From IMG/VR virus record IMGVR_UViG_2711768074_000019: a stretch of 4,078 nt of DNA. One strand, 5' to 3'. This stretch comes from a virus (taxonomy: Duplodnaviria; Heunggongvirae; Uroviricota; Caudoviricetes). The notes below the pieces were generated by a model, which searched no databases, was not told the DNA's origin, and saw nothing but the letters and a program-made list of their open reading frames with translations. This document shows positions 1-4,078 of the stretch, one piece after another; within the stretch, counting starts at the first letter, position 1, and every line of letters begins with the position of its first letter. A program made the translations under genes and the position numbers.

Positions 1-83
1 TAGTCATGTGGGATGGCTGGTTCAGACTTCAGGATATGGTTGAGGGTTACCTGGTGATGAAGTCTCTTGATCAGGAGATCTGA
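1..83 (+). CDS. IS4-family (IS50-like) transposase, C-terminal fragment; the 5' part lies outside the window
   Basis: Seen: in-frame codons from position 3 translate to VMWDGWFRLQDMVEGYLVMKSLDQEI, then stop. Recalled Tn5 Tnp tail ALWEGWEALQSKLDGFLAAKDLMAQGIKI aligns without gaps (W-[DE]-G-W, LQ, [DE]-G-[FY]-L, K-x-L, terminal I). Identity is only about 40 percent by eye. Confidence 0.65.
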   Translation, partial: VMWDGWFRLQDMVEGYLVMKSLDQEI

Positions 84-92
84 TCAAGAGAC
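62..92. repeat. Palindrome inside the IS end (13-bp arms 62..74 and 80..92, 5-nt centre) carrying three GATC Dam sites
   Basis: Seen: gtctcttgatcag / gagat / ctgatcaagagac, with GATC at 69..72, 77..80 and 82..85. The same structure is mirrored at 3985..4015. Knowledge: the IS50 inside end is regulated by Dam methylation of GATC sites. Confidence 0.6.
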
Positions 93-182
93 AGCCGCAC
101 AGGGGGATTCACCATGCCAGTTTCTTTTAACAAACTCCCCGCAAAACAGACAACTGTCAACCGTCTGAATTGTGAGACATTT

Positions 183-206
183 AAAAAAAAGCCCGCAAAA
201 GCGAGC
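183..206 (-). terminator. Rho-independent terminator closing the minus-strand tRNA transcription unit
   Basis: Seen: the minus-strand RNA reads GCUCGC-UUUU-GCGGGC (6-bp stem with one G.U pair, from 206..191) followed by eight U (complement of A183..A190). Confidence 0.7.
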
Positions 207-221
207 CAGGGAAAATAAGTG

Positions 222-298
222 TGGCGCGTTGTACTGGATTCGAACCAGTGACCGATTGCTTAGAAGGCAATTGCTCTGTCCGGCTGAGCTAACAACGC
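222..298 (-). tRNA. argO: tRNA-Arg (anticodon UCU)
   Basis: Seen: the reverse complement folds as a cloverleaf with acceptor stem GCGTTGT/ACAACGC, T-loop GGTTCGAATCC, anticodon loop CU-UCU-AA and a 3' GCCA. It closely resembles E. coli argU by eye. The symbol is assigned from its position in an ileZ-argN-argO-like cluster, not from a search. Confidence 0.8.
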
Positions 299-311
299 AG
301 GATACAGATAA

Positions 312-388
312 TGGACCGCCTTCGGGGACCCGAACTCCGCGCAACCAGCTTCGAAGGCTGGCGCTCTTTCCTGATGAGATAATGGCGG
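312..388 (-). tRNA. argN: tRNA-Arg (anticodon UCG), with an atypical T-arm
   Basis: Seen: acceptor stem CCGCCAT/AAGGCGG (one A-A mismatch), anticodon stem-loop CCAGC-CTTCGAA-GCTGG and a 3' TCCA. The T-loop is TTCGGGT (G where A58 is normally conserved) and the T-stem has one mismatch. The symbol is assigned from cluster order only. Confidence 0.65.
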
Positions 389-395
389 TATGTGA

Positions 396-471
396 TGGTG
401 GCCCTTGCTGGATTTGAACCAGCGACCTGGCGATTATGAGTCGCTCGCTCTCACCACTGAGCTAAAGGGCC
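396..471 (-). tRNA. ileZ: tRNA-Ile2 (anticodon CAU, lysidine type); formally tRNA-Met cannot be excluded
   Basis: Seen: GGCCCTTTAGCTCAGTGGTGAGAGCGAGCGACTCATAATCGCCAGGTCGCTGGTTCAAATCCAGCAAGGGCCACCA, with a perfect 7-bp acceptor stem and anticodon CAT. It is near-identical in layout to E. coli ileX/ileY as recalled. It is the first gene of the Ile-Arg-Arg cluster. Confidence 0.8.
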
Positions 472-480
472 GCGCGCAGA

Positions 481-510
481 ATAATAACGTTACGGAATTA
501 ATACTGCAAT
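481..510 (-). promoter_or_regulatory. Candidate sigma70 promoter for the tRNA cluster
   Basis: Seen on the minus strand: -35 TTGCAG (510..505), 18-bp spacer, -10 TATTAT (486..481), then a GC-rich discriminator (GCGCGC) about 9 nt before the tRNA-Ile 5' end. Inference only. Confidence 0.4.
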
Positions 511-520
511 CTCATCCGTT

Positions 521-1570
521 TCAAACGATTAAATCCTGAACTTCCCTGACTGTCTGCTCAAAACGTCCGGTCTCCAGCTCAACACCAATCGCACGACGCC
601 CCAGTGCCATCGCCGCTTTTACCGTTGAACCCGACCCCATGAAAAAATCCGCAACCAGATCACCAGGACGACTACTTGCGCTGATTATCTGCTGCAGCAT
701 TTCTGCCGGTTTTTCGCACGGATGTTTCCCTGGATAGTACTGCACCGGTTTATACGTCCACACATCGGTGTACGGCACCTGCACCGTCACACCGAAATAC
801 CGCCGCAAATTTTTATATTCACTCAGCAGTTCCATATACTGCCGGTTCAGCTCACTGTATGTGCTGACCAGCTGGTGGTGTGGCTTTTCCAGTTCCCCGC
901 GCTGATGTTTCTCTTCTGCCACCCGGGCAAACAACGCCTGCAATTTGTTGTAATCACCCTCGTTCGGTAACTGCCACTGACTGGTACCAAACCAGTGCGA
1001 AGCCATGTTTTTCTTTCCGGTGGCTTCCGCTATCTGTTTTGACGTTATTCCCAGTGATTTACGCGCATCACGAAAGTAAGAAATCAGCGGGGCCATGACG
1101 TGCTGTTTTAGCTCGCGCCCCTGTGCCACATAGCCATCATCTTTCGGGCGATACGGTCCCTGATAATGTTCTGCAAACAGAATGCGCTCTGTTGCCGGAA
1201 AATACGCCCGCAGACTTTCCTTATTGCACCCGTTCCAGCGTCCGGACGGCTTCGCCCAGATAATGTGGTTCAGCACATTAAAGCGCTCACGCATCATGAT
1301 TTCGGTGTCAGATGCCAGGCGATGACCACAGAACAGGTAAAAACTTCCGGCAGGCTTCAGTACCCGCCAGAACTGCGCCAGACACTGGTCCAGCCATTTC
1401 AGGTAATCATCGTCGCCCTCCCACTGGTTATCCCAGCCCTCGGGCTTCACTTTAAAGTATGGCGGGTCTGTGACTATCAGATCGACAGAGTTTTCCGGTA
1501 AGGTCTGGATAAATTCCAGGCAATCAGCGTTGATTAACTCACAACTGGATATTTTTACAGTATTAGCCAT
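521..1570 (-). CDS. Beta-class DNA amino-methyltransferase (N6-adenine or N4-cytosine), orphan within this window
   Basis: Seen in the 349-aa ORF: N-terminal DLIVTDPPY (motif IV), HPCEKP, and C-terminal DLVADFFMGSGST (FxGxG AdoMet motif I). Motif IV before motif I is the beta-class order. The central region carries an HTH-like LGITSKQIAEATGK. No endonuclease gene is nearby. Confidence 0.85.
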   Translation of the reverse strand: MANTVKISSCELINADCLEFIQTLPENSVDLIVTDPPYFKVKPEGWDNQWEGDDDYLKWLDQCLAQFWRVLKPAGSFYLFCGHRLASDTEIMMRERFNVLNHIIWAKPSGRWNGCNKESLRAYFPATERILFAEHYQGPYRPKDDGYVAQGRELKQHVMAPLISYFRDARKSLGITSKQIAEATGKKNMASHWFGTSQWQLPNEGDYNKLQALFARVAEEKHQRGELEKPHHQLVSTYSELNRQYMELLSEYKNLRRYFGVTVQVPYTDVWTYKPVQYYPGKHPCEKPAEMLQQIISASSRPGDLVADFFMGSGSTVKAAMALGRRAIGVELETGRFEQTVREVQDLIV

Positions 1571-1711
1571 AGATCAATAAGCACTTCTCTGATAGGCTCA
1601 TACCGCTTTTGCGCAAAGCAGATGGGCCTGAGGTTTGCTTGTGACCCCAACGCATGAGCAGATGGCTGGCAGGTGCCGCTAACACCCACCAGCCGCCCAT
1701 TACCACAAATT

Positions 1712-1733
1712 AAAAAACCTTCACTGAGGAAGG
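1712..1733 (-). terminator. Weak hairpin plus U-run overlapping the stop codon of the small HTH ORF; possible attenuator or weak terminator
   Basis: Seen: a 5-bp stem CCTTC/GAAGG (1718..1722 with 1729..1733) and a 6-nt loop. On the minus-strand RNA it is followed by six U (complement of A1712..A1717). The stem is short, so this is weak. Confidence 0.3.
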
Positions 1734-1918
1734 CGTCTGTAACAACCGAACTGATAATCTGCCAGACCCGCCATAACAAGCTGAGTCAGTATTAACTGGC
1801 AGCGTTCGCGTGAAAGGTAAGTATTCTGCGCAATTTCCCCGACGGTCGCCGGTTCGGTGACGCTTAATTCATTAAACACCACTCTGGCGGTTTCGGTCAT
1901 ATCCTGCTGTTTTAGCAT
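1721..1918 (-). CDS. Small hypothetical protein (65 aa) with a predicted helix-turn-helix
   Basis: Seen: internal ATG at 1918..1916 preceded by AAGGG about 8 nt upstream. Product MLKQQDMTETARVVFNELSVTEPATVGEIAQNTYLSRERCQLILTQLVMAGLADYQFGCYRRLPQ. The segment ATVGEIAQNTYLSRERCQLILTQL looks like an HTH; this is inference from the pattern. The longer track ORF (to 2041) starts at GTG directly against the terminator and is less plausible. Confidence 0.45.
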   Translation of the reverse strand: MLKQQDMTETARVVFNELSVTEPATVGEIAQNTYLSRERCQLILTQLVMAGLADYQFGCYRRLPQ

Positions 1919-2041
1919 GCCTTTTTCCCTTTTCCGGTTAACGTGACATACCAATACCTCTTGTCGAAAAAGCCAGCAAGCTGAAAGACCGGCATTCGCA
2001 ACCACCAGCGCATTTAACGTCCTGTACCGCTTTTCGGGCAC

Positions 2042-2069
2042 AAAAAAACCCGCATAAAGCGGGTTCTTT
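2042..2069 (-). terminator. Strong intrinsic terminator (hairpin usable on both strands) about 85 nt downstream of the Q-like gene; tR'-like
   Basis: Seen: stem CCCGC/GCGGG (2049..2053 with 2059..2063, extendable by two A-T pairs) and loop ATAAA. The minus-strand RNA is followed by seven U (A2042..A2048); the plus strand is followed by TTCTTT. Confidence 0.75.
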
Positions 2070-2153
2070 CAGGTGTCCATGTCTGCTATTCGCCTCGCGG
2101 TATAGCTTTGCGAAGCGTAGCTGGATTGAAACAGTTTATGCGTAAAAAATCAA
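2070..2153 (-). promoter_or_regulatory. Candidate late promoter and Q-utilisation region (pR'-like) between the Q-like stop and the terminator
   Basis: Seen: a weak candidate -35 TTGATT (2153..2148, overlapping the stop codon), 17-bp spacer, -10 TTCAAT (2130..2125). This -10 lacks the conserved A at position 2. Placed mainly by analogy to the lambdoid Q-pR'-tR' layout. Confidence 0.3.
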
Positions 2154-2704
2154 GACATTTTTTGAGCAAACGATTCTCGCATAGGGATGTATAGCGCATA
2201 TTCAGCAACAGCCAACCAATTAGCAATTCGCTTTTCGCATGTACTAAAACACCATTCCGGGTGCACCTCATTCAACAATTCAGCCATTTTGCGTTTACTC
2301 ATCCCCCGCCCTTCGTATCTTTGCCGCAGGATATCAATCAATCCAGGATAACGTGCAAGCGCTTTACTTATCACCCCATCAATGCGTAACGCCTCTGCAT
2401 CAGTACAGTGAGACAACCAGCTCTTCTGTCTGCCAGCGATCATCTCTCGCAAGAATGCTTCCAGCTCTGGTTTATCAATCCCTGACTCCCTGATTCTACG
2501 CAGGGCTTCATTGATCGCGGTTTTTGTCAGTTTTTTGGATGTCAGCAACTGATTGAACATATTTCCTGGTTTGCCACCACCTATGTACGACCAACGCCCC
2601 CACATCCGTAATTTCCCCTGGATCCAGACGGCTTCCAGCGTTTTTAGACGTAAATGCTCGCCGCTTTTGCCTGTAATTTCCGGGTATATCATATTTACGA
2701 TCAC
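2150..2704 (-). CDS. Putative late-gene antiterminator Q-like protein
   Basis: Seen: a 184-aa ORF starting at GTG 2704..2702, which overlaps the RusA stop (GTGA); an alternative ATG lies at 2692..2690. It contains LRMWGRW, reminiscent of the L-x-R-W-G-x-W N-terminal motif I recall in phage 82-type Q. Synteny also fits: RusA then Q, as in DLP12 and phage 82, followed about 90 nt later by a strong terminator. No domain search was run. Confidence 0.5.
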   Translation of the reverse strand: MIVNMIYPEITGKSGEHLRLKTLEAVWIQGKLRMWGRWSYIGGGKPGNMFNQLLTSKKLTKTAINEALRRIRESGIDKPELEAFLREMIAGRQKSWLSHCTDAEALRIDGVISKALARYPGLIDILRQRYEGRGMSKRKMAELLNEVHPEWCFSTCEKRIANWLAVAEYALYIPMRESFAQKMS

Positions 2705-3060
2705 TCACTCTCAATTTTGTAAATCTTCACGCCCAGCCGCCCCCCAGGAACGAGCTGACCGCGCACAATATTAATTTCATCAAACTGCTCGTCGTCTATG
2801 AGAAGTCCGGCATGCGTCAGCGCATCCAGTGGTGCTTTCAGGATATTGTCCAGGTCACGACGACGCTTATCCGGTGGCTCTGCAATAATCTTTATCGCCA
2901 GCCGTCCGGACAGGTTTAATTTCAGCCGCTGCTCGCGAACAATTAGCGCCACATCCCGGCGATAACGCTCACCGGCTTTTGATACAAAATATGTGTTGTC
3001 ACGACGTCGCCAGTAGGTGTTCACCGTTGGCGGGTAAGGCAAAACAAACTCTATACGCAT
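2701..3060 (-). CDS. rusA: Holliday-junction resolvase RusA (crossover junction endodeoxyribonuclease)
   Basis: Seen: 119 aa with LPYPPTVNTYW, DKRRRDLDNILKAPLDALTHAGLLIDDEQ and GGRL, matching the RusA signature and its acidic catalytic residues. SD AAGAGG lies 6 nt upstream of ATG 3060..3058. Confidence 0.9.
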   Translation of the reverse strand: MRIEFVLPYPPTVNTYWRRRDNTYFVSKAGERYRRDVALIVREQRLKLNLSGRLAIKIIAEPPDKRRRDLDNILKAPLDALTHAGLLIDDEQFDEINIVRGQLVPGGRLGVKIYKIESE

Positions 3061-3072
3061 CAGTAACCTCTT

Positions 3073-3978
3073 TTACCCAAGCACGCCGGTTGCAAAGGCG
3101 TGATCAAGAAAATGAAAAATTAAATCAACCTGGGAACCATGCTTTTCTTCGAATGCCAGCGGATCCGCATGAAGCTCGTTGTGATGTTCCCGACACAGCG
3201 GTAGTGTGAAAATATCGTGGGATTTTGTTCCCATTCCACCCTGACCGTGGCCTATCAGGTGGTGGGCATCATCAGCAGGCTTTCCGCAACATGCGCACGG
3301 CTGCGTCTTAACCCAGCGCGTGTACTTTTCATTAACCCAGCGGCGACGTTTTGGGCGTAACATAAAAGACTCCGGCGACTCCGGATCCACTTTCAGCGCC
3401 AGCACCTTTTTCGCCTTATCCTGGATGATGCTGGTGGCAGGAACCGAAGGCACAAGGTCACTTTCCCGGGTAACAGACGGCACAACAGGCTTCGGTAATC
3501 TCAGTGCCTTACGGGCTGCACTTTCCGATAAGGCATCCGCCAGATCATTACGAATCAGCCACCAGCACAGTTCCGGCATTGTCACAACGTGACTGTCGTC
3601 AAAACCGAGCTCCCGACGCACAACAGACAACACCCAGCGGGCACAGTTATCCGTTGCCATTGATTCCAGCCGTTCCGTGAACTGATCGCGCAGCTGGTTA
3701 TCGCAGTGCCAGCACAGACGGATTGCGCCCGGAGCGTGTCGCATTGTGGTCATGTTCTCGCTGTGCCAGTTGGAATGAGGCCACTGACAGCCCTTTTCAC
3801 GAAGTAACCAGCTTTCAAGACATTCCACGCCACCAGCACGACGGATCACTGCCTCATTGCGGAACACGGCCCGAACGGCAGGATCATCCGCCAGCGGTTG
3901 TGATGCCGCCGGAACGGCACCACTGGCAAAAGATGAATAACGTTCCGGCTCAGGCTCCAGCAGGACACGCCCCTGCAT
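3073..3978 (-). CDS. DUF968 / YdfU-like prophage protein with a C-terminal HNH-like zinc-binding nuclease domain; possibly N-terminally truncated by the IS
   Basis: Seen: 301 aa. The C-terminus PCACCGKPADDAHHLIGHGQGGMGTKSHDIFTLPLCREHHNELH has the Cys/His spacing and G-x-GTK element of HNH-like prophage nucleases (compare DLP12 YbcO as recalled). The ATG at 3978..3976 is only 5 bp from the IS end. Confidence 0.55.
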   Translation of the reverse strand: MQGRVLLEPEPERYSSFASGAVPAASQPLADDPAVRAVFRNEAVIRRAGGVECLESWLLREKGCQWPHSNWHSENMTTMRHAPGAIRLCWHCDNQLRDQFTERLESMATDNCARWVLSVVRRELGFDDSHVVTMPELCWWLIRNDLADALSESAARKALRLPKPVVPSVTRESDLVPSVPATSIIQDKAKKVLALKVDPESPESFMLRPKRRRWVNEKYTRWVKTQPCACCGKPADDAHHLIGHGQGGMGTKSHDIFTLPLCREHHNELHADPLAFEEKHGSQVDLIFHFLDHAFATGVLG

Positions 3979-3982
3979 AAAC

Positions 3983-4078
3983 CTGTCTCTTGATCAGATC
4001 TCCTGATCAAGAGACTTCATCACCAGGTAACCCTCAACCATATCCTGAAGTCTGAACCAGCCATCCCACATGACTACC
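3983..4078 (-). mobile_element. Second, inverted copy of the IS50-like inner end; transposase on the minus strand, again reading towards the cargo
   Basis: Seen: 3983..4076 is the exact reverse complement of 1..94. It begins CTGTCTCTTGATCAGATCT at 3983..4001 and runs off the window edge. Confidence 0.75.
3994..4078 (-). CDS. IS4-family (IS50-like) transposase, C-terminal fragment (second copy)
   Basis: Mirror image of feature 1..83, with stop codon TGA at 3996..3994 on the minus strand. Confidence 0.65.
   Translation of the reverse strand, partial: VVMWDGWFRLQDMVEGYLVMKSLDQEI

Follow-up and report, generated by a model that had tools for sequence, protein, structure and literature searches.

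A predicted winged-helix protein and a structured leader RNA as candidate regulators of an M.EcoGII-type adenine methyltransferase in lambdoid prophages

The stretch of viral DNA considered here (IMG/VR record IMGVR_UViG_2711768074_000019; 4,078 nucleotides (nt) in all, referred to as the window) comes from the late-regulatory region of a lambdoid prophage, and all of its genes lie on the minus strand. Its central part contains, in order, a terminator, a conserved box, a small gene for a 65-residue protein, a hairpin around the stop codon of that gene, a structured leader RNA and a gene for an M.EcoGII-type adenine DNA methyltransferase. The small gene, which is the main subject of this work, comes first among the genes behind the tR'-type terminator of the lambdoid late operon. 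It probably forms one control cassette together with the leader and the methyltransferase gene.

The small gene occupies 1721..1918 on the minus strand, from an ATG at 1918 to a TGA at 1723-1721, and encodes a predicted winged-helix protein of PHROG 331 with the sequence MLKQQDMTETARVVFNELSVTEPATVGEIAQNTYLSRERCQLILTQLVMAGLADYQFGCYRRLPQ. A ribosome-binding region precedes it at 1919..1931 on the same strand (AAGGGAAAAAGGC before the ATG). An AAGG/AGG element, placed 9-12 nt 5' of the ATG, was kept across the 37 loci examined; in the window the AAGG(G) lies ∼9 nt before the start, which is usable and at the long end of normal spacing. A preliminary description of this DNA, made from its letters alone, had pointed to a 65-residue open reading frame (ORF) with an ATG and a good Shine–Dalgarno sequence, and both are indeed present on the minus strand, the latter being conserved in relatives.

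The small ORF is a genuine gene under purifying selection. Its frame and length (63-69 residues) were kept in 36 loci from ∼35 species with no frameshifts, the very events that the preliminary description had named as a sign against it. Between the window and Kluyvera the proportion of changed sites was 0.09 for non-synonymous (pN) and 0.85 for synonymous positions (pS), the latter being saturated, and within the E. coli-type group third codon positions varied in 58 of 63 columns, compared with 26-33 of 63 for the first and second positions. It might be argued that the ORF itself has no function and owes its conservation to overlapping RNA or DNA elements, since its 3' end overlaps a conserved hairpin and conserved non-coding elements lie on both flanks. 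This is extremely improbable, given that third-position variation dominates, that pN falls far below pS, that length and frame are maintained in 36 loci, that even divergent variants (41-55% identity) retain the same pattern of folding, and that the structural model described below is a confident one.

Some databases call a longer ORF of 106 residues from a GTG (2041..1721). This version is an artefact. In roughly half of the related loci the frame is closed by a stop no more than 12 codons 5' of the ATG, with no other start available, and the DNA upstream has indels whose lengths are not divisible by three. The in-frame upstream stops in relatives thus fix the start codon at the ATG. The spurious N-terminal extension is accounted for by a ∼55-nt segment between the terminator and the box (1981-2041, minus strand; …CAGGACGTTAAATGCGCTGGTGGTTGCGAATGCC…), which is kept in about half of the related loci and cleanly missing from the others. 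The 106-residue version gives a better PHROG score than the 65-residue ORF, probably a reflection of copied annotations. Decayed copies of the small gene were seen in four loci, L145 (Erwinia tracheiphila), L159 (Mangrovibacter yixingensis), L146 and L168, with one of the four lacking a stop codon and another having a premature stop at codon 23; all four still have a recognisable leader, and L145 and L159 a recognisable methyltransferase.

The protein belongs to PHROG 331, a family of unknown function (E-value (E) 1.4e-37, residues 1-64). A large protein database held 334 homologues, many of them automatically named ‘TrmB family transcriptional regulator’ (the label that NCBI gives to the protein of the window as well), and these collapsed to only 61 clusters at 50% identity, so that the family is a narrow one. 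Every Pfam match was below threshold, yet each was to a winged-helix family (TrmB, MarR_2, DprA_WH, HTH_24, Rrf2 and Crp). Membership of the TrmB family itself (PF01978) was rejected, the match scoring 18.0 bits against a cut-off of 25.6 (E 0.0026) and the effector domain being missing. NCBIfam gave no match, a sequence search of the PDB with the small protein found nothing, and a weak PADLOC match (E 0.0035) was considered spurious.

[quoted passage not shown] The model is that of a canonical winged helix, in which H1-H2-H3 are followed by a C-terminal beta-hairpin wing, and this places the protein in the superfamily. The helix-turn-helix (HTH) predicted in the preliminary description is thereby borne out in a more specific form, and the structure prediction which it had proposed as a check returned a fold of the DNA-binding type. 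Foldseek identified neighbours at the level of fold only, with a best E of 1.7e-3 and template modelling scores (TM-scores, normalised to the query) of 0.6-0.86. N-terminal winged-helix domains of S-adenosylmethionine (SAM)-dependent O-methyltransferases were at the top, accompanied by IclR and MarR/OhrR/SarZ, with MarR-type proteins reaching 0.86; the SECIS-binding domain of SelB appeared at rank 50. The best structural similarity and a weak sequence similarity are to MarR, IclR and TrmB-type factors, with which the protein shares the H1-H2-H3-wing topology. Unlike them, it is a bare 65-residue acidic domain with neither dimerisation nor effector domains. Conservation is highest in helix 3, where (R)CQLILTQL.(M)AGL is nearly invariant, and is also high in an N-terminal DMTE.A motif.

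A small HTH protein encoded immediately upstream of a methyltransferase had initially been likened to the controller (C) protein arrangement of restriction–modification systems, and this did not hold up. C proteins are Xre-type HTH_3 proteins. They bind as dimers to palindromic C-boxes, with the endonuclease gene as their chief target. The window's cassette resembles systems such as C.PvuII and C.AhdI in having a small HTH protein beside a DNA methyltransferase, a conserved element upstream of the small protein's own gene and a plausible role in timing. It differs in that the protein is a winged helix with no match to HTH_3 (PF01381) in the Pfam scan, the box has no dyad and is not a C-box, and the methyltransferase is an orphan late phage enzyme without an endonuclease. 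The absence of an endonuclease had been recognised at the outset and extends from the window to the related loci, where tRNA, stx or lysis genes follow the methyltransferase; the DUF968/HNH gene further upstream is an ordinary gene of the lambdoid nin region, found also in HannyBb, which does not have the cassette.

The methyltransferase gene (521..1570, minus strand) encodes a 349-residue beta-class N6-adenine DNA methyltransferase of the M.EcoGI/GII type (PF01555, E 8.7e-45). Its motifs VTDPPYF and FFMGSGST, with the DPPY N-terminal and the FxGxG C-terminal to a central target-recognition domain, support this assignment, and the layout of its domains matches the description of M.EcoGII (PMC11551740). 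It is 89.7% identical to the enzyme of phage 1720a-02, which Murray et al. found to be very similar to the 349-residue M.EcoGII (PMC5778455). Within its target-recognition domain, amino acids ∼160-237 gave weak matches to HTH_3 and to transcriptional regulators, and these fit the four-helix bundle with an HTH described for M.EcoGII (PMC11551740). M.EcoGII methylates adenine in any sequence context and is fully active alone; it is silent in lysogens and deleterious if expressed constitutively (PMC5778455). By analogy, we infer that the window's copy is also non-specific.

The properties of this enzyme bear on the possibility that the acidic winged helix binds a protein, the methyltransferase or another, and acts as an inhibitor, as a chaperone restraining the enzyme until late in infection, or as a subunit for dimerisation or targeting. 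In SAM-dependent O-methyltransferases the N-terminal winged-helix domains, which were the top structural neighbours, mediate dimerisation and not DNA binding; a partner of this kind would also suit the acidic net charge and the tight linkage of the two genes. It is nevertheless quite unlikely, because M.EcoGII is fully active and non-specific by itself (PMC5778455), the methyltransferase occurs in phages that do not have the small gene, and a structured spacer of 150 nt is unlike the arrangement of typical two-subunit or toxin–antitoxin pairs.

The linkage between the two genes was assessed by a protein alignment scan against one genome per species, which gave 40 loci from ∼35 species of Enterobacterales, in Escherichia, Salmonella, Klebsiella, Kluyvera, Citrobacter, Buttiauxella, Scandinavium and Phytobacter, and also in Mixta, Erwinia, Mangrovibacter, Proteus, Providencia and Plesiomonas. 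In 36 of them the methyltransferase starts 135-155 nt past the stop codon of the small gene, and this holds down to 41% identity in the small protein and 57% in the methyltransferase. The other four comprise one locus truncated at the end of its contig, a decayed copy and two without the methyltransferase, both of which look decayed and still have the leader. Not one of the 40 species-level loci had the small gene next to a different intact downstream gene. Co-occurrence across phages, another check proposed at the start, is thus tight within the Enterobacterales. An IMG/VR pattern scan and a scan based on the methyltransferase returned near-identical E. coli relatives only, and were of no use for these statistics.

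The cassette was found behind at least four different types of Q, sometimes with an extra gene (phiP27, SfV, mEp460, Ayreon and Stx2a_1447), which indicates that it moves as a unit. It is present in 2158 of 5426 complete E. coli genomes (40%), with up to seven copies per genome, and the gene is annotated in thousands of genomes. In the phage database the small gene occurred in 57 records and the methyltransferase family in 95. Where the methyltransferase has at most ∼61% identity (N15, phiKO2, PY54, VHML and phiO18P), there is no small gene at this position. N15 and phiKO2 have gp51, a protein of 75 residues annotated as a winged helix in phiKO2, whose gene lies immediately upstream of the late promoter that is followed by terminator, leader and methyltransferase. 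This protein is a probable distant homologue of the small protein on the strength of a profile comparison (hhalign on N15 gp51, probability 86%, E 5e-6), with a different helix 3 and with no box at the N15 locus. Probable distant homologues of 75-78 residues, encoded upstream of the late promoter and terminator that come before the leader and methyltransferase, are thus present in the linear-plasmid prophages, namely N15 gp51 (L250, 1006-1233), phiKO2 gp51 (L251, 1003-1230) and PY54 ORF59 (L253, 992-1225).

Linkage of this kind could in principle arise if the small gene were an independent regulator, or moron, with its target elsewhere in the phage or host (the timing of the late operon, Q or RNA polymerase, or host genes), and merely shared with the methyltransferase a recombination-prone slot after tR'. 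The layout of a terminator, a box with its gene and a hairpin with a U-run would suit such a unit. In phiSTEC1575-Stx2k and PhiR5_1 the small gene remains the first late gene in the absence of the methyltransferase, the N15 homologue is separated from its methyltransferase by the late promoter and terminator, and the common denominator of all cases is proximity to a late promoter or terminator. Against this, spacing and co-occurrence have been maintained over ∼35 species although synonymous sites are saturated and the Q modules differ, none of the 40 species-level loci has another intact gene in place of the methyltransferase, and the two without it keep the leader and look decayed. We therefore regard an independent regulator as unlikely.

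Upstream of the small gene lies a conserved box (1947..1980, minus strand) with the consensus CTTGCTG-N10-(C)AAGAG(G/T)TAYNTGTRTG, which takes the form CTTGCTG-N10-CAGAGTTAYNTGTRTG in the window and may serve the small gene as promoter or operator. In every small-gene locus its spacing is invariant and its sequence nearly so. It is situated 58-62 nt 5' of the ATG (∼61 nt in the window, 69-70 nt in Morganellaceae) and 25-80 nt past the terminator. A scan of 253 sequences gave 225 matches in 224 of them, one per small-gene locus, and the box was not found in the checked loci that have no small gene at this place (Flotzy, OS31, N15, phiKO2 and HannyBb). Its geometry is promoter-like, with TTGCTG, a 17-nt spacer and TAYNTG. 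A canonical sigma-70 promoter was not supported by the promoter scan, the best -10 candidate being TAYNTG, without the T at -7. A structure at the RNA level was also rejected, as RNAalifold predicted zero pairs from the box to the ATG, quite unlike the result for the leader. Since there is no RNA structure here, the box is better viewed as an element acting at the DNA level, and it could be a weak or activator-dependent promoter, an operator, or both.

The second conserved element is a structured 5' leader RNA of the methyltransferase gene (1571..1706, minus strand), which makes up 136 nt of the 150-nt spacer. The preliminary description had taken about 150 bp before the methyltransferase to be non-coding DNA. 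Non-coding it is, whereas its apparent role as an inert spacer cannot be sustained, as it is the most conserved stretch of the region and a structured leader. It was ∼77-83% identical in comparisons where the proteins were 41-86% identical and synonymous sites were saturated, and is thus more conserved than both flanking genes. A covariance model (R1) built on 42 sequences found exactly one copy in 52 of 53 loci, directly 5' of the methyltransferase wherever that gene is intact. Matches extended to PY54 (scoring 78 bits), to an N15-like phage of E. coli (61 bits) and, at 47 bits with E 6e-10, to Vibrio phage VHML; in Aeromonas phiO18P the model found no copy. Rfam gave no match in the leader even at E up to 10, and the literature search found nothing on the leader or its sequence. 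A 47-residue ORF within it (1706..1563), which starts near the invariant AUG of P1, was considered and rejected, since in Kluyvera, Salmonella and Citrobacter it is interrupted by TAG after seven codons and 1-nt indels occur in the hairpin loops.

In the window the leader helices are P1 (1695-1699/1623-1627), P2 (1683-1694/1664-1675), P3 (1653-1659/1637-1643) and P6 (1603-1621). Over the alignment 87.8% of cells were paired, compared with 28-44% in slid controls, and compensatory changes were found in 17 pairs, compared with 5-8 in the controls. P2 had compensatory changes in 8 of its 12 pairs; P1 (AUGGGC with GCCCAY) was paired in 100% of cells with one double change, and P3 and P6 were also supported by covariation. 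An additional helix, Stem B, was absent from the structure used to build and align the model. Its 3' strand, GCTTATTGATC (1572..1582, minus strand), ends 1 nt before the methyltransferase ATG and pairs with 1637-1646 (GGTCACAAGC). This helix (GGUCA-C-AAGC with GCUU-AC-UGAUC) had compensatory changes in six of nine pairs and 89% of cells paired, with AAGC/GCUU in E. coli replaced by GGAC/GUUC in Proteus and GGGC/GCCC in Plesiomonas. As P3 and Stem B both use the same seven nucleotides (1637-1643), they are mutually exclusive, and the 5' strand of P1 is itself able to pair with either of two downstream partners. Where other lineages have C-G / G-C in P3, the E. coli type keeps a tandem C·A / A·C mismatch, and one of the same kind occurs in P2 of phiKO2 (L251); such mismatches could be protonated A+·C wobbles, or could serve in recognition.

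Minimum-energy folds of the leaders had z-scores of -2.4 to -5.7, with -3.4 for the window. The leaders of the window, Salmonella, Proteus, Providencia and OS31 adopt a form with Stem A and Stem B in which the start region is paired, and those of Plesiomonas, Hafnia, N15, phiKO2 and PY54 adopt a P1-P2-P3 three-way junction. In N15-type, Hafnia and VHML leaders Stem B is weak or absent and only the junction is available. Reading of the leader sequences revealed no Shine–Dalgarno sequence at normal spacing before the methyltransferase AUG. With a conserved structured domain and mutually exclusive helices at the start site, the element has the features of a regulatory leader. We conclude that it is a functional structured RNA, which most likely gates the translation of a toxic enzyme and is probably the primary control element of the methyltransferase. 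Candidates for its effector are the winged-helix protein, the methyltransferase itself and a metabolite such as SAM.

The first of these candidates corresponds to a translational activator of the type of Com, the small regulator encoded upstream of mom in phage Mu. The protein would bind the leader RNA, for example at the P1-P2-P3 junction, and convert it from the Stem A/Stem B fold into the open one, so that the methyltransferase would be translated only when late transcripts, and with them the protein, are abundant. Several observations would suit this: the default fold of the window's leader sequesters the start region and the alternative fold is kept by covariation; the small gene is immediately 5' of the leader, on the same transcript; there is precedent in the com-mom genes of Mu and in the com-hin1523/hia5 cassettes (PMC3299994); and winged helices can bind RNA, the SelB–SECIS domain being among the structural neighbours. 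Yet the leader is essentially unchanged in Flotzy and OS31, which do not have the protein, its junction core is common to N15-type phages in which the homologue has a different helix 3, and the small protein, which is acidic to neutral, lacks both a zinc finger and homology to Com. Binding of the leader RNA by the protein thus seems to us a rather unlikely alternative to action at the box.

Our favoured reading, to which we assign a probability of roughly 0.45, is that the small protein is a dedicated regulator of the cassette, a ‘controller’ in function, that expression of the toxic methyltransferase is gated at two levels, by the leader RNA and by the winged-helix protein, and that the protein acts at the box. 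We infer that it binds nucleic acid, and likewise at which site and in which direction it regulates. By default, the window's leader would form Stem A and Stem B, pairing ∼11-12 nt just before the methyltransferase AUG (OFF), and refolding to the P1-P2-P3 three-way junction would free the start region (ON). The protein would bind the box just upstream of its own gene and so set the transcription of both itself and the methyltransferase, a form of autoregulation. Action at the box DNA is favoured because the invariant helix 3 and the invariant box appear and disappear together, because in N15 the homologue differs in helix 3 and the box is missing, and because the leader is unchanged in phages that do not encode the protein.

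A number of observations weigh against this reading. The leader is also present in phages without the small gene at this position (Flotzy, OS31, N15, PY54 and VHML), and in Flotzy and Serratia phage OS31 both leader and methyltransferase are essentially unchanged, so that the small protein is not needed for the leader to work. Conversely, phiSTEC1575-Stx2k (L257, 2477-3548) and PhiR5_1 (L258, 2468-2698) have kept the box and the small gene and lost the methyltransferase; in the former, the break lies inside the leader after P2 and is followed by an unrelated 237-residue HTH protein. The box is a poor match to sigma-70 promoters and, CTG/CAG apart, shows no dyad symmetry. Its role may be confined to that of a promoter or 5' region for the small gene, in which case box and gene would occur together regardless of whether the protein binds the box. 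As regards the protein, all of its Pfam matches fall below the gathering thresholds, and the literature, searched by topic, family name, accession and sequence strings, yielded nothing on it. The family is acidic to neutral, with a median net charge of -1, an isoelectric point (pI) of 5.6 and a charge as low as -5 in Proteus. This is unusual for a nucleic-acid binder of 65 residues and calls for caution in assuming strong binding.

In its logic the cassette appears closest to com-mom of Mu and to the com–methyltransferase cassettes of Mu-like prophages, in which non-specific adenine methyltransferases (hin1523/hia5/nma1821) lie behind homologues of the small regulator Com (PMC3299994). As in Mu, a small regulator gene would sit directly upstream of a late, host-toxic, broad-specificity adenine-modifying enzyme which protects phage DNA from restriction, with the translation start of the target gene held in RNA secondary structure. 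The components are different. Com is a zinc-finger RNA-binding protein (Cys4), whereas the small protein is a predicted winged helix with two conserved cysteines (C40 and C59), and the Pfam and PHROG scans of the small protein gave no Com-related families. The methyltransferase is a beta-class enzyme of the M.EcoGII type, neither of the Dam-like Hia5 family nor a Mom protein. Whilst com and mom overlap, the two genes here are 150 nt apart with a complex leader between them, and this leader works without the protein in some phages, RNA binding by the small protein being putative. The leader itself resembles riboswitch-type or protein-responsive leaders in having a multi-helix three-way junction upstream and an alternative helix 5' of the start codon, both kept by covariation; it differs in matching no Rfam family and in the weakness or absence of Stem B in the N15-type, Hafnia and VHML leaders.

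If protein and leader do gate a promiscuous anti-restriction methyltransferase, they would represent a second, independently evolved solution to the com-mom problem. In a more ambitious form of this idea, the leader would be a new class of cis-regulatory RNA, combining a three-way-junction sensor with a competing helix that sequesters the start site, and would license translation of promiscuous M.EcoGII-type enzymes in phages of Enterobacterales and Vibrio, with either the 65-residue protein as a dedicated trans effector, unrelated in fold to Mu Com and convergent with it, or the junction sensing SAM or S-adenosylhomocysteine (SAH). We consider this proposal, as a whole, improbable. The most valuable by-product of the analysis is the undescribed leader RNA, which would add to the catalogue of regulatory RNAs a structured element widespread in enterobacterial prophages. 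M.EcoGII is widely used (MadID, BIND&MODIFY and the engineered SUPREM), and on its regulation the original paper reports no more than its silence in lysogens and its toxicity upon expression (PMC5778455).

Between the small gene and the leader, the TGA stop codon lies in the loop of a weak terminator-like hairpin followed by a U-run (1707..1734, minus strand; GCCTTC-CTCAGTGA-AGGT, then TTTTTTAATTT). The terminator scan flagged this as the sole terminator-like site, at 1734-1707, in agreement with the earlier recognition of a stop codon embedded in a weak hairpin with a U-run. With RNAfold, 20 of 36 loci had a stable hairpin whose loop held the stop codon, and the minimum-energy fold of the window's own short stop-codon segment differed from the hairpin. 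The structure is typical of Enterobacteriaceae, Hafnia and Plesiomonas, where the stem pairs vary by lineage with complementarity kept (CCTTC/GAAGG, CCTCC/GGGGG, CTCCGC/GCGGAG and CTGCC/GGCAG), is absent in Proteus, Providencia and Morganella (Morganellaceae), and is retained in Flotzy despite the loss of the ORF. The U-run is confined to the E. coli type, which includes the window. The weak terminator is thus real in the window but lineage-specific.

The upstream boundary of the cassette is a strong intrinsic terminator (2042..2067, minus strand; AGAACCCGC-TTTAT-GCGGGTT followed by U7), which was read from the sequence and is the tR' of the Q/pR' unit. A GC hairpin with a U-run is found at the equivalent position in all 36 aligned loci, its stem varying in sequence and remaining complementary, and an equivalent terminator is annotated in SfV, Ayreon, N15 and phiKO2. 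The simple terminator scan did not flag the site at 2042..2067, probably because extension of the stem consumed the U-run. Weak Rfam matches at 2040-2080 (isrK, RsmY and leader-peptide) were below threshold and merely reflect the terminator hairpin. The interval from the Q stop codon to the terminator (2068-2150, minus strand) should yield a short pR' transcript like the lambda 6S RNA or StxS; a simple promoter scan found no canonical promoter within it. The arrangement is like that of lambda pR'-6S RNA-tR' and of StxS (PMC7547250), in that the cassette starts right after the Q-controlled short transcript and its terminator, from which it follows that the cassette genes are Q-dependent late genes.

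In phages of the 933W type, tR' is directly followed by tRNA and stx genes, whereas here the cassette of winged-helix gene, leader and methyltransferase is inserted in between. In several Stx2 phages the late transcript carries the cassette after pR'/tR' and before the stx genes, and the terminator-like hairpin, the box and the leader could influence toxin output there. The RM12579-type prophage lineage, to which positions 95-3982 of the window are 99.9% identical (prophage of E. coli O55:H7 RM12579), has a SASA-family esterase after the tRNAs and not stx genes.

The remaining genes of the window, all on the minus strand, are the DUF968/HNH gene (3978..3073), RusA (3060..2701), the Q-type antiterminator (2704..2150, listed as 2150..2704; family matches to DUF1133 / Phage_antitermQ), which lies upstream of the pR' region and the terminator, and three tRNA genes (471..222). 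The tRNAs are at 396-471, 312-388 and 222-298. The first was identified as Met(CAT) by ARAGORN and is annotated as ileZ, tRNA-Ile, in related phages and RefSeq; the middle one, tRNA-Arg(TCG), scored only 33.8 bits against the Rfam tRNA model. The ends of the window (1-94 and 3983-4078) are inverted copies of an end of ISEc13, an insertion sequence of the IS4 family, 100% identical to those in enteropathogenic E. coli (EPEC) E2348/69, and flank the 3.9-kb phage segment in the manner of a composite transposon. The right-hand copy truncates the DUF968 gene to 301 residues, compared with 329 in the intact RM12579 prophage.

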